44,062 bases of DNA from positions 1 through 44,062 of IMG/VR virus record IMGVR_UViG_2529292906_000019. One strand, given 5' to 3'. Below the pieces are notes generated by a model, which was not told the origin of the DNA, did not search any database, and was given only the letters and a program-made list of their open reading frames with translations. A program made the position numbers and the translations under genes. Source of the DNA: a virus (taxonomy: Duplodnaviria > Heunggongvirae > Uroviricota > Caudoviricetes). Numbering within the stretch: the stretch's first letter is position 1; each line of letters begins with the position of its first letter. Shown piece after piece: positions 30,247 through 32,662 of the stretch.

Positions 30247-30330
30247 ATGGCTGACTTACTTATCAAAATCGTACCTCCGATTATCGTGATTGTTACTGCG
30301 ATCATTGAGTACGTAAACCAGCGCCCGTAA
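30247..30330 (+). CDS. possible small hydrophobic peptide (27 aa, MADLLIKIVPPIIVIVTAIIEYVNQRP)
   Basis: ATG with a weak SD, followed 14 nt after the stop by a + strand terminator; not matched to any known family. Confidence 0.2.
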   Translation: MADLLIKIVPPIIVIVTAIIEYVNQRP

Positions 30331-30343
30331 GCATGGTATAGCC

Positions 30344-30374
30344 CAAAGGCCCAGAAATGGGCCTTTCCTTTTAC
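30344..30374 (+). terminator. rho-independent terminator (+ strand)
   Basis: AAAGGCCCAGAAATGGGCCTTT followed by CCTTTTA. Confidence 0.5.
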
Positions 30375-30389
30375 GCAGCAATTCCCCTC

Positions 30390-30540
30390 AGGTTACACAG
30401 CTCAGGAAAATTAGCTCGCACCAAAGCCTCAGCAAACGGCGGAGGAACAGCGTTACCGCAGCGGGCAACCTGCTTATCCTTCACGTACTTCTTATCGCTG
30501 TAGTCCTGAATAATGATATACAACTAAGGAACATACAGCC
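30390..30540 (-). pseudogene. 3' remnant of a DNA methyltransferase gene (C-terminal ~50 codons only)
   Basis: Minus-strand translation LYIIIQDYSDKKYVKDKQVARCGNAVPPPFAEALVRANFPELCNLRGIAA*; GNAV resembles C5-methyltransferase motif X; a stop lies immediately upstream in frame, so no N-terminal part is present. Confidence 0.35.
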
Positions 30541-30626
30541 TCATACCAAGATGTTCGGTACCCAGTATCAATTGACCTCAACACATAGCAAGAAGTTATT
30601 GCACTCGTTCTCAAAGTAAAACCACC

Positions 30627-30655
30627 TTGAAAAAGAGATATCATTTTGATATCAT
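30627..30655 (+). promoter_or_regulatory. promoter with overlapping palindromic operator for the AT-rich cassette
   Basis: TTGAAA, 17-bp spacer, TATCAT; 17-bp perfect palindrome GATATCATTTTGATATC (30637..30653) overlaps the spacer and -10. Confidence 0.5.
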
Positions 30656-30688
30656 GTCTTGAGAAACCTCTAGAGGTAAGGATTCATT

Positions 30689-31054
30689 ATGCCCTTAAGC
30701 ACAGATGTTGATCGTGTGTTAACGTTCACTGAAAGACTTGAACAAATTTTAATGGAAATGGTCGAAAAACATGACCATTTCTTTGACTTCCTTCGAGTAC
30801 GGGGTGGACAAAATCTTCCCCAAACTGTTTCAGTAAAAAATGAAAAATTCAAAATTAGCATCCCATTGATTATGCTAATTTTGTTAATCACACGCTTAAT
30901 AGTCTTCAAACTTGCGATTATGTATAAGCTCATAAGATCCAAAATGCTTGAAGTGAAAGCACTGTCTAAAGTAGGCCAAAACACGCATATCTATCTTTTT
31001 GATTTAGATACAGTTCGGAAATTGAACATTAAGGAGACCTTATGTCACGCATGA
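30689..31054 (+). CDS. first gene of the three-gene cassette, unknown function
   Basis: 121-codon ORF in AT-rich DNA; RBS AGGTAAGGA before the ATG; overlaps the next gene by 13 nt. Confidence 0.45.
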   Translation: MPLSTDVDRVLTFTERLEQILMEMVEKHDHFFDFLRVRGGQNLPQTVSVKNEKFKISIPLIMLILLITRLIVFKLAIMYKLIRSKMLEVKALSKVGQNTHIYLFDLDTVRKLNIKETLCHA

Positions 31055-31317
31055 AAAAGCCTGACAGCTTTCTCCTTAGATTCAAAGAAGAAGATGGTAT
31101 CAACGGTATCAGTTCTGAATCCTTTGAAAAACTAATGAAAGCTACTGGCATGAGTAAAACAGACCTCATGCATTTTGCACTCGTAAACTTAGTGGAAAAA
31201 TACATCCCGGCTTATGAGCAAGATGATGGGCCCTTGACCGAAGCTCAATTCCGGACACTACATGAAAGATCGAAAACTAACCAAACGCCGGATGAGAGTT
31301 TCGAAATGCTATTGTAG
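31042..31317 (+). CDS. putative antitoxin, DinJ/RelB-like ribbon-helix-helix
   Basis: 91 aa; ...FKEEDGINGISSESFEKLMKATGMSKTDLMHFALVNLVEK parallels the DinJ N-terminal pattern recalled from memory; RBS AAGGAGA; directly upstream of the MazF-like gene. Confidence 0.5.
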   Translation: MSRMKKPDSFLLRFKEEDGINGISSESFEKLMKATGMSKTDLMHFALVNLVEKYIPAYEQDDGPLTEAQFRTLHERSKTNQTPDESFEMLL

Positions 31318-31325
31318 GTATAAAA

Positions 31326-31727
31326 ATGCATTCGAAAATAGAACCATTGCCAAAGACCGGCGATATTGTTTGGCTACAACCATCTGAAGAATGGGGAGTT
31401 GATACTCCCAAAAGGAGACCAGGTGTGGTATTAGGTGTATCGAAACTAAGGCATGAAATCATAGTTGCATTCGGTACGAGCCAAAAAACACACAAACTCT
31501 ACCCATCAGAGTTTCTTATTCAAAAAGCTGATGGCGATGATGTTTTTGGTCTATCTGGGTTAAGCTACGATACTAAATTTGACTTAGCCAGAACATCTAT
31601 CCTGCCTTTTACTACAGAGTTTTTCTCTAAGGCACCAAGAAAAAATAATGTCCCTTATCCAAAGCTTGGTAGTGTTCATATAACGTACTACAAAGCGATG
31701 TGCAAGGCGAAAAACAATAGTAATTGA
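31326..31727 (+). CDS. putative toxin, MazF/PemK/Kid-like fold
   Basis: 133 aa; GDIVWLQP...RRPGVVLGVS...IIVAFGTSQ...SEFLI parallels MazF GDLIWVDF...HRPAVVLS...VPCTTQ...FEVVL from memory. Confidence 0.6.
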   Translation: MHSKIEPLPKTGDIVWLQPSEEWGVDTPKRRPGVVLGVSKLRHEIIVAFGTSQKTHKLYPSEFLIQKADGDDVFGLSGLSYDTKFDLARTSILPFTTEFFSKAPRKNNVPYPKLGSVHITYYKAMCKAKNNSN

Positions 31728-31744
31728 CTTCTGAAGTGCTGTAG

Positions 31745-31780
31745 TATCCACTACAGCACAATTTTCTAAGCAATCAATAA
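31745..31780 (+). terminator. terminator-like hairpin after the cassette
   Basis: Perfect 9-bp inverted repeat GTGCTGTAG / CTACAGCAC followed by AATTTTCT. Confidence 0.45.
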
Positions 31781-31869
31781 ACTTACTATTTCAAATCATT
31801 CCCCCTGCCCCAATAGGATCTGATCGCGTTCGTCATCGGTTACTGGTGCTGACTCAGTTAAGTTAATTT

Positions 31870-32354
31870 TCATACCGAACCGCTTTTAACAAAGATAATC
31901 CAGTGAGTTTTGTCGTTCTTTCCGGTACGCTGACCAATTGCAGGTTTCACATCTGTAAGTGCCAAAATCTGGCTAACAGGGATCTGCGTCTCGTTCCATT
32001 TGAATATGAGAACGCCGTGTGGCCACAGTACGCGAAAAGCCTCTTTGAATCCGCTTCGTAAATCAGAACGCCACGTTTTTTGTTCAGTCGCCCGTATTTT
32101 TTACCCATCCAGGCAGACTGGCCAACGCGCTCGAGGTGCGGCGGGTCAAACACCACAACCGGAAAAGAAGAATCAGCGAACGGCAGTGAACGAAAATCGG
32201 CAATCAGGTCGGGACTGATAACCAGGCGGCGACCGTCGCACAGTTCGTGCTCTTCGGCGCGGATATCAGTGAACACGGCGCGGGTGTCCTGCTTGTTGAA
32301 CCAGAACATGCGGGAGCCGCAGCACATATCAAGAATCGTCGTGCTGTCGGTCAT
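31870..32354 (-). CDS. small DNA methyltransferase (DPPH motif), frame-disrupted at a homopolymer
   Basis: N-terminal frame MTDSTTILDMCCGS...VVFDPPHLERVGQSAWMGKKYGRLNKK (stop at 31947), then protein-like sequence continues in the -1 frame ...TWRSDLRSGFKEAFRVLWPHGVLIFKWNETQIP... to 31870; they join if the T6 run at 32076..32081 (coding A6) were one base longer. Confidence 0.5.
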
Positions 32355-32662
32355 ACTGATGTTCTCCCGTAAAACGCCAGAACCCGCTGCATCGCCGGAC
32401 TTGTGCGGCATACTGATGCGACCACGTTTTTTCTCATGCTCGATTTGAGCTGCTTGATGTTCAGATCCCCGCCGGGCTGAAGCATGTAGACCGGGTGATG
32501 CGGATCGCCAGTGCGGATAACTACCGCTCTGCGTACCAGGTGAAGCAGCAGGTTGTGTGCCTTCTTGCAGTCGCATCCCAGAAGGTTCTGAACCTGACGC
32601 GGCGTTACGGTCTGGTTAGCCTGAAGAAAATCAACGATTGCCCACAGTGATTTGCTTGCCAT
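32351..32662 (-). CDS. hypothetical protein, possible winged-helix DNA-binding
   Basis: 103-aa ORF between the DnaC-like and methyltransferase genes, translationally coupled. Confidence 0.4.
   Translation of the reverse strand: MASKSLWAIVDFLQANQTVTPRQVQNLLGCDCKKAHNLLLHLVRRAVVIRTGDPHHPVYMLQPGGDLNIKQLKSSMRKNVVASVCRTSPAMQRVLAFYGRTSV

Follow-up and report, generated by a model that had tools for sequence, protein, structure and literature searches.

A probable MazF-family type II toxin–antitoxin operon with an orphan first gene in a lambda-like prophage

Results

A self-contained three-gene cassette in AT-rich prophage DNA

The window analysed here (the whole 44,062-nucleotide stretch of Caudoviricetes DNA, positions 1 to 44,062 of IMG/VR record IMGVR_UViG_2529292906_000019) carries a cassette of three plus-strand genes, g1, g2 and g3, with regulatory signals of its own (Table 1). 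The open reading frames (ORFs) of g1 and g2 overlap by 13 nt, and g3 starts 8 nt past the g2 stop codon. GC content is 0.35–0.40 across 30450–31800, as compared with 0.53–0.57 in the replication region on the right. The cassette lies in the opposite orientation to the replication and nin genes of the prophage, between two methyltransferase remnants; its minus-strand, lambda-like neighbours encode replication protein O, a DnaC/IstB-like ATPase, YdaT, DNA polymerase III (pol III) theta and a DUF1367 protein. An earlier note on this DNA, made from the letters alone, had described three plus-strand genes in AT-rich DNA opposite to their neighbours, and the ORFs, base composition and orientation of the flanking genes all agree with that description.

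The sigma-70-type promoter upstream of g1 is the only sigma-70-like site within 30300–32000 and matches at 10 of 12 positions, in addition to its TG extension, just as the near-consensus TTGAAA-17-TATCAT promoter of the earlier note would have it. The operator, GATATCATTTTGATATC, fills the promoter spacer and overlaps the −10 box. This 17-mer had been called a perfect palindrome, which is not quite what it is: seven of its eight pairs are complementary and one T/T mismatch lies beside the centre. Its operator-like character stands, given its conservation and its overlap with the promoter, and the Pantoea copy, GATATCATTATGATATC, is a perfect palindrome. The hairpin noted downstream of g3 is likewise present, with a perfect stem of 10 rather than 9 bp (arms 31736–31745 and 31750–31759), a predicted folding energy of −18.3 kcal/mol and a z-score of −5.2 against shuffled sequences. 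The unit is thus self-contained, with its own promoter, operator and terminator.

Table 1 Features of the cassette and of its boundaries, in window coordinates
Feature	Coordinates	Strand	Details
3′ remnant of phage DNA cytosine (C5) methyltransferase gene	30402–30493	−	91% identity with the terminal part of an intact gene of 2 kb
Sigma-70-type promoter	30627–30655	+	−35 TTGAAA, 30627–30632; 17-nt spacer; extended −10 TG-n-TATCAT, 30650–30655
Operator GATATC-ATTTT-GATATC	30638–30654	.	Two palindromic hexamers, 11 bp centre to centre
g1, orphan basic protein of 121 aa	30689–31054	+	Shine–Dalgarno AAGGA, 30678–30682
g2, acidic antitoxin of 91 aa, probable operator-binding autorepressor, unclassified family	31042–31317	+	Shine–Dalgarno AAGGAG, 31031–31036 (strong)
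g3, predicted MazF/PemK-fold toxin of 133 aa, putative sequence-specific endoribonuclease	31326–31727	+	Pfam, AlphaFold2 (AF2), Foldseek, hhalign
Intrinsic terminator	31736–31767	+	10-bp perfect stem GTGCTGTAGT/ACTACAGCAC, 4-nt loop, then AATTTTCT
Class I S-adenosylmethionine (SAM)-dependent methyltransferase gene, probably degenerate (right boundary)	31879–32356	−	Coordinates projected from alignment

The third gene encodes a predicted MazF/PemK-fold toxin

The g3 product is basic (pI 9.5), and its AF2 model, built from the family alignment, reached a predicted local distance difference test score (pLDDT) of 74.6 and a predicted template modelling score (pTM) of 0.68. When this model was compared with the PDB by Foldseek, the top 50 matches were all MazF proteins, each with a probability of 1.00 and template modelling (TM) scores of 0.6–0.74 over ~130 columns; they included the toxins of S. 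aureus, M. tuberculosis (mt1 and mt3), B. subtilis, B. anthracis (MoxT) and E. coli, and CcdB was absent from these 50. Sequence comparisons pointed the same way. The Pfam PemK_toxin model (PF02452) was matched by 12 of 15 g3 family members at E ≤ 0.01 (best 3.3e-7), several homologues carry a precomputed PF02452 match, g3 itself matches PHROG 1936 (“MazF-like growth inhibitor”), and the g3 family profile matches the N-terminus of E. coli MazF in the PDB.

In an hhalign comparison with E. coli MazF (probability 87%; the N-terminal part of the MazF sequence used agrees with the PDB alignment), R31 of g3 fell on R29, T51 on T52 and YPSEF on YPFEV. None of the 15 family members departs from R31 or T51, the two positions that align with the catalytic residues of E. 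coli MazF. Predicted structure and alignment thus give g3 both the MazF/PemK fold and the catalytic Arg and Thr. Some proteins identical to g3 are already named “type II toxin-antitoxin system PemK/MazF family toxin” by NCBI. Taken together, Pfam, PHROG, fold and catalytic positions identify g3 as a predicted divergent MazF/PemK-fold toxin, the family to which the earlier note had assigned it.

The g3 reading frame is repeatedly broken. A 1-nt deletion frameshifts g3 in one of four E. coli prophage copies (O27:H7 B4103-1; locus L001, 8827–9227) and leaves g1 and g2 intact, and g3 alleles shortened to 100, 104 or 111 aa are found repeatedly in assemblies of both E. coli and Citrobacter. Such recurrent frameshifts and truncations would fit the usual decay pattern of a toxic gene.

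g2 and g3 form a conserved pair that is found far more widely than g1

A scan with the g3 alignment, covering one genome per GTDB species, returned 259 relatives. We kept 80 of these (almost all from Betaproteobacteria, plus two from Pantoea, at 37–45% identity) and assessed the gene content of their loci by running hmmsearch on the ORFs. A g2 homologue lay immediately upstream of g3 in 77 of the 80 kept loci and in all close loci, the conserved adjacent antitoxin–toxin pair expected of type II operons. A g1 homologue, in contrast, was found at none of the 80 distant loci and at all nine close Enterobacterales loci. The ancestral arrangement is the two-gene g2–g3 pair, which is also by far the more common, and the insertion of g1 is specific to one lineage. 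The fundamentally tripartite module of the earlier note is therefore not supported, since the core is a two-gene pair with the same operator.

The g2 product is acidic (pI 5.1 overall and 4.3 in the C-terminal tail) and is the most constrained of the three proteins, with no nonsynonymous change relative to E. coli and 70–99% identity across genera. Because g2 lies directly upstream of g3 in 77 of 80 loci, makes an acidic partner to a basic protein and is the best conserved of the three, we conclude that it is the antitoxin of g3.

The kind of antitoxin is another matter. The earlier note was right to see an antitoxin, but its DinJ/RelB label is not supported: neither Pfam nor NCBIfam gave a match to that family at E up to 10, and hhalign returned probabilities of 0.3% for DinJ and 0.8% for RelB. 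Comparisons with CcdA and B. subtilis MazE likewise stayed below 1% each (0.2% for B. subtilis MazE). We also rejected a MazE/PemI (AbrB/SpoVT-type) antitoxin, as no Pfam or PDB profile matched and the predicted secondary structure is helical. Among g2 homologues searched against Pfam at E up to 10, matches were scattered, weak and of the helix-turn-helix (HTH) type. By eye, g2 shows an FLLRFK strand, a helix, a G-x-(S/D)-(K/E)-T turn and a further helix with (I/M)H-x-A-L. The spacing of the operator—two self-palindromic hexamers 11 bp apart—agrees with a ribbon-helix-helix (RHH) pattern, as do the AF2 helices at 25–35 and 39–59, to be read against a weak g2 model (pLDDT 58). With that model, the by-eye pattern and the scattered HTH-type matches as its basis, an RHH-like N-terminus is a tentative reading. 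Profile searches and structure prediction, the checks that the earlier note had proposed, place g3 in the MazF family and g2 in no described family.

In every public record examined, g1 and g2 are annotated as “hypothetical protein”, as is g3 in most. Literature searches with the family’s accessions, and for three-part or prophage MazF systems, found no description of the g2–g3 family or its accessions. As far as we found in the literature, the g2 antitoxin family and its operator are undescribed.

Relatives of g3 also occur, at 46% identity, on 54 plasmids of Klebsiella, E. coli and others (IncF-type). On the one plasmid examined, pCuAs of K. pneumoniae (locus L103, 2177–2899), a g2–g3 relative lies downstream of the IncFII repA gene, both members being annotated as hypothetical; the GATATC operator was not seen in the ~140 nt upstream of this pair.

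The operator accompanies g2, with or without g1

To follow the operator across the family, we inspected the 80 nt upstream of g2 in the 77 two-gene loci and used 666 kb of the same loci as background. The exact GATATC-N5-GATATC motif was present in 36 of the 77, compared with no occurrence in the background, and its ATAT-N7-ATAT core in 70 of the 77, compared with 19 background occurrences (~0.002 per 80 nt). It usually lies at −35 to −37 from the g2 start, and sub-clades carry the variants TATATA-N5-TATATA or GTATATA-N5-TATATAC.

The operator is kept in all three-gene loci as well, here together with the promoter 52–59 nt upstream of g1 instead of g2. The Pectobacterium three-gene copy reads GCTAGC-N5-GCTATC. 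The TTGnnn-16/17-TATCAT layout recurs in all three-gene loci, though their flanks cannot be aligned, and each of these loci has its own strong, non-homologous hairpin at the same place after g3. With the operator in ~85 loci and an independent terminator hairpin in every three-gene copy, these features lie far beyond chance. Conservation and promoter overlap thus give the cassette, at the level of sequence, the predicted autoregulatory palindromic operator of a type II toxin–antitoxin operon.

Since the operator accompanies g2 where g1 is absent, its binder should be g2, alone or with g3, and not g1. Each hexamer is self-palindromic, and the pair is arranged as a direct repeat in locus L049; both points suggest that a symmetric dimer may bind each hexamer, in a dimer-of-dimers arrangement.

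A two-gene locus of Pantoea osteomyelitidis (L014, 5480–5510) has a promoter-operator of the three-gene kind, TTGACG...GATATAgatttGCTATCAT, with the operator ~176 nt upstream of g2; this interval contains no g1 ORF. This locus may represent an intermediate or a deletion of g1.

g1 is a conserved orphan restricted to Enterobacterales mobile elements

The overlapping upstream gene of 121 codons, for which the earlier note could recognise no family, indeed matches none and is conserved. Searches with g1 and its homologues gave no family match in Pfam, PHROG, NCBIfam, PADLOC or the PDB; with 10 homologues added, neither SecB nor any other consistent Pfam family emerged, and a PDB profile search came back empty. 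An exhaustive profile search of 1.84 billion representative proteins returned six cluster representatives. The homologues measure 121–141 aa and show the identical 13-nt overlap with g2 in every three-gene locus examined. These loci lie in E. coli, Citrobacter and Enterobacter prophages, in a Pectobacterium carotovorum prophage (where g1 is uncalled, its ORF being present) and in an island of Pantoea ananatis that also contains an insertion sequence and a fragment of an integrase. In addition, on a metagenomic contig (L008, 152–3349), the three-gene cassette adjoins, and is divergent from, a gene for a 1065-aa SIR2_2-domain protein, a neighbour that suggests a defence-island setting.

g1 evolves fastest of the three genes, with a dN/dS (ratio of nonsynonymous to synonymous rates) of 0.44 relative to E. 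coli and identities down to 20–50% across genera. A spurious ORF was rejected, as reading frame, gene length and 13-nt overlap all persist at this divergence; so was a diverged copy of g2 or g3, as g1 resembles neither. We conclude that g1 is a real, conserved orphan confined to mobile elements of Enterobacterales and that it is inserted between the ancestral operator-promoter and g2, and hence expressed and repressed together with the pair.

The g1 product is basic (pI 9.5), with a conserved core, SVKNEKFKISIPL...LIVFKLAIMYK, within which residues ~58–78 form a probable transmembrane helix. Over its central 21 residues, the window copy has an Eisenberg mean of 0.71 and a Kyte–Doolittle mean of 2.57, and the Pectobacterium copy 0.87 and 2.93. 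A conserved Cys near the C-terminus was discarded as a candidate functional residue, being forced by the overlapping g2 start codon (TTATGT).

Two structures within or next to g1 were inspected. A 12-bp perfect inverted repeat, CAAAATTAGCAT / ATGCTAATTTTG, with a 10-nt spacer lies at 30850–30883, where the codons of g1 are best conserved. The window and E. coli copies have this repeat, but it is missing from those of Pantoea, Enterobacter, Pectobacterium and contig L008; we therefore rejected it as a conserved structure, and it is probably non-functional. At 31030–31078, the g2 Shine–Dalgarno AGGAG can pair with CUCCU in g2 codons 11–12, which would sequester the ribosome-binding site and start codon. 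This pairing recurs in seven of seven three-gene loci, with compensatory changes at two pairs, both arms being constrained by the Shine–Dalgarno or coding function; it may couple translation of g2 to that of g1.

The cassette occupies a variable slot next to the nin region

The left methyltransferase remnant marks the start of a block common to the window and E. coli prophages, and an ORF overlapping it (30371–30523) encodes ...CGNAVPPPFAEAL... The shared block, ~1.7 kb in length (window 30399–32086), occurs at ~92% identity in prophages of four of 5426 complete E. coli genomes, its left end being the cytosine methyltransferase remnant and its right end lying inside the SAM-dependent methyltransferase gene. 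On the right, from 31886 onward, the window aligns with methyltransferase genes found in Salmonella phage Oslo and in E. coli prophages, and the E. coli counterparts are annotated as frameshifted or incomplete. In a minus-strand ORF of 209 aa (31947–32576), a methyltransferase-like part (ILDMCCG...DPPH) follows an unrelated N-terminal stretch rich in Arg and Ser, and the C-terminus seems to be out of frame. This ORF has no Pfam match and looks like a class I SAM-dependent methyltransferase gene in decay.

One related E. coli prophage without the cassette was examined. It has the same replication genes and methyltransferase, and its slot holds a tRNA gene and hypothetical genes; in this prophage, of strain 2018-10-1CC (locus L012, 3180–3271), a tRNA-Ile gene and small hypothetical genes fill the slot from the SAM methyltransferase gene to the pol III theta gene. 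The view of the earlier note that methylase fragments flank the cassette in an accessory hotspot is therefore correct, as the block ends in methylase remnants and the slot is otherwise filled in a related prophage.

Searches for the three window proteins in a public protein collection gave exact matches for all of them, g1 in the Citrobacter freundii complex and g2 and g3 also in E. coli. The cassette is present in seven IMG/VR viral contigs. Its prophage host is most likely Citrobacter, and the prophage lambda-like.

Discussion

A probable self-regulated toxin–antitoxin operon as prophage cargo

The computation directly supports the gene structure, the predicted fold of g3, its conserved pairing with g2, the operator and the restricted distribution of g1. 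From these we infer toxicity and RNase activity of g3, DNA binding by g2 and any action of g1. We conclude that the cassette is very probably a self-regulated MazF-family type II toxin–antitoxin operon and that it forms part of the cargo of a Citrobacter lambda-like prophage, in the variable slot close to the nin genes. The settings in which relatives occur—prophage slots, a genomic island, a SIR2 neighbour, a position beside repA on a plasmid, and viral contigs—fit a mobile addiction or defence module.

Fold, gene order, charge, operator and genomic setting together suggest standard type II logic. The single promoter would give rise to one mRNA carrying g1, g2 and g3. The g3 protein, as a MazF-fold endoribonuclease, would cut RNA and arrest translation, and g2, labile and acidic, would neutralise it through its C-terminal tail. 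The N-terminal strand-helix-helix part of g2 may bind the two GATATC hexamers, probably as a dimer of dimers; g2 or a g2–g3 complex sitting there would block RNA polymerase at the sole promoter and so repress the operon. Loss of the prophage, or a host shut-off imposed by a phage, would stop the resupply of g2 and free g3. A role in abortive infection or in stabilisation of the prophage, as the earlier note had imagined, is plausible.

Several observations weigh against this reading. The match of g3 to PemK_toxin (E 1.4e-4, 22.4 bits) falls short of the gathering cut-off of 23.1, its sequence alignment to MazF is confined to the N-terminal half, and its model is of medium confidence (pLDDT 74.6), three of five models being poor. 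The g2 family was unmatched in Pfam, NCBIfam, PHROGs, PADLOC and the PDB, even when searched with 15 diverse homologues or as a family profile. The AF2 model of the g2 monomer is weak (pLDDT 58), with helices at 25–35 and 39–59 and an unstructured N-terminus, and a Foldseek search with it found no match, a search that this pLDDT makes meaningless; co-occurrence with the operator is the sole pointer to DNA binding by g2. None of the three proteins matched a defence family of PADLOC-DB 2.0 at E up to 10, and DNA and protein searches found the cassette in no sequenced phage of the INPHARED collection. For g1, the central segment is not hydrophobic in the most distant homologue (Eisenberg 0.32), so that membrane insertion, probable in the clade of the window, is not a proven trait of the family. 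Its role is a guess, our best one being an accessory modulator or an added phage-exclusion function rather than a regulator or second antitoxin.

What g1 might add to the pair

The first alternative to consider is that g1 is independent cargo, perhaps a small membrane protein that serves in superinfection exclusion or modulates the host, and that it uses the toxin–antitoxin promoter and benefits from the addiction exerted by g2–g3; the three genes would then not amount to a single functional system. The pair is complete and widespread without g1, which is the fastest-evolving of the three, unlike g2 and g3, equipped with a transmembrane-like helix and found in mobile-element settings only. However, g1 was never found apart from g2–g3, every readable homologue context shows the identical 13-nt overlap, and the 1.84 billion proteins held only the six cluster representatives. 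This exclusive, fixed linkage, maintained across genera at 20–50% identity, argues for a functional tie; we regard independent cargo as possible, and tentatively so.

Alternatively, g1 might be the sensor or trigger of a true three-part abortive-infection system, a membrane-anchored protein that responds to phage entry or envelope damage and releases or activates the MazF toxin, for instance through sequestration or destabilisation of g2. Its exclusive co-inheritance with g2–g3, the possible coupling of its translation to that of g2, its occurrence in prophages and beside defence genes, and its hydrophobic helix would all suit such a role. However, g1 is homologous to none of the known sensor or defence proteins, distant members do not keep the hydrophobic segment as a transmembrane helix, and the argument comes from context alone; we consider a trigger of this kind unlikely. 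Taken further, a membrane-embedded sensor/adaptor g1 would turn the MazF pair, in the prophage-borne branch only, into a phage-triggered, three-part device for abortive infection or superinfection exclusion, an idea that we hold to be doubtful.

The first gene is a regulator in the paaR2-paaA2-parE2 and omega-epsilon-zeta modules, and g1, which is basic and comes first, might by analogy regulate the operon in the manner of PaaR2 or omega, leaving g2 as a merely neutralising antitoxin; with the operator found before g2 in 70 of 77 two-gene loci that lack g1, and no DNA-binding family signal in g1, this is very improbable. Equally far-fetched is a g3 that acts as a CcdB-like gyrase poison or as an inactive MazF-fold protein: MazF and CcdB do share one fold, and sequence similarity to MazF covers the N-terminal half only, but the 50 best structural matches are all MazF RNases with no CcdB among them, the positions aligned to Arg29 and Thr52 are invariant, and the Pfam, PHROG and NCBIfam matches are all to MazF/PemK.

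Implications

Should the MazF-family toxin–antitoxin reading be confirmed, the g2 family would be a new, structurally uncharacterised class of MazF antitoxin, and its clear, phylogenetically deep GATATC-N5-GATATC operator would suit studies of antitoxin–DNA recognition and conditional cooperativity. g1 would then offer a natural experiment on how a two-gene module gains a third component. Because the pair exists both with g1 (on mobile elements of Citrobacter, E. coli, Enterobacter, Pectobacterium and Pantoea) and without it (in Betaproteobacteria and on IncF-type plasmids), the contribution of g1 is directly testable. If g1 were a sensor or adaptor, a toxin–antitoxin module would have acquired an input domain in the form of a separate gene, placed within the leader of the module itself, and the significance of the system would rise if g1 were shown to act as such an input to the toxin. 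Annotation of the toxin, the antitoxin and the operator would also become feasible.

Comparison with known toxin–antitoxin systems

Three-gene toxin–antitoxin modules have been reviewed (PMC4803016). Like omega-epsilon-zeta, paaR2-paaA2-parE2, pasABC, the toxin–antitoxin–chaperone (TAC) systems with their SecB-like chaperone, SpoIISABC and HipBST, the cassette combines three small, presumably co-transcribed genes that include a toxin and an antitoxin; as with paaR2 and omega, the extra gene comes first, and as with paaR2 of an E. coli O157 prophage, the setting is a prophage. Unlike in the regulator-first modules (PaaR2 and omega), however, the operator belongs to g2 and not to g1, and unlike in TAC and the other three-gene modules, g1 is neither SecB-like nor part of a split toxin and is unrelated to its partners. 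To our knowledge, none of the third components of those modules is membrane-associated, as g1 probably is.

With MazEF/ChpA of E. coli and Kis-Kid (PemIK) of R1/R100, the g2–g3 pair shares a small, basic protein of predicted MazF/PemK fold that retains the motif P-x-x-G-D-(I/L)-(I/V)-W and the aligned catalytic Arg and Thr, an acidic antitoxin gene immediately upstream, and a palindromic operator over the promoter. It departs from these systems in that g2 lacks the AbrB/SpoVT (MazE/PemI) signature, a third gene lies upstream, and g3 is ~20 residues longer, with a conserved C-terminal half of its own (SGLSYDTKFD...ILPFTTEFF).

The best matches of the g3 model were the Gram-positive and mycobacterial toxins of B. 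subtilis EndoA/EndoAI (YdcE/YdcD), B. anthracis MoxXT, S. aureus MazEF and M. tuberculosis MazEF-mt1. The antitoxins of YdcDE and MoxXT have an RHH N-terminus (PMC3879964), and the strand-helix-helix pattern of g2, together with the self-palindromic hexamers of its operator, would suggest the same. Against this likeness, g2 reached a probability of only 0.2% with B. subtilis MazE, and g3 is only 14–20% identical to these toxins.

More broadly, MazF toxins pair with AbrB, CopG/RHH, DUF3018, winged-HTH, RelB-type and unclassified antitoxins, and work cited in the same paper treats MazF and CcdB as one superfamily (PMC3879964). Because MazF toxins already pair with several unrelated antitoxin folds, a partner other than MazE is not remarkable in itself. 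The operon logic is ordinary for the MazF type; undescribed, as far as we found, are the antitoxin family with its operator and the orphan third gene. Chopra et al. 2013 reported that some MazF antitoxins have no conserved domain and that each subfamily has its own upstream palindromic motif (PMC3879964). The g2 family differs from those subfamilies: searched against Pfam at E up to 10, it matched none of the models, DUF3018 among them, and the GATATC-N5-GATATC operator does not appear in the text of PMC3879964. In combining an unclassified antitoxin with an upstream palindromic motif of its own, the g2–g3 pair nevertheless finds its nearest precedent in these MazF subfamilies.

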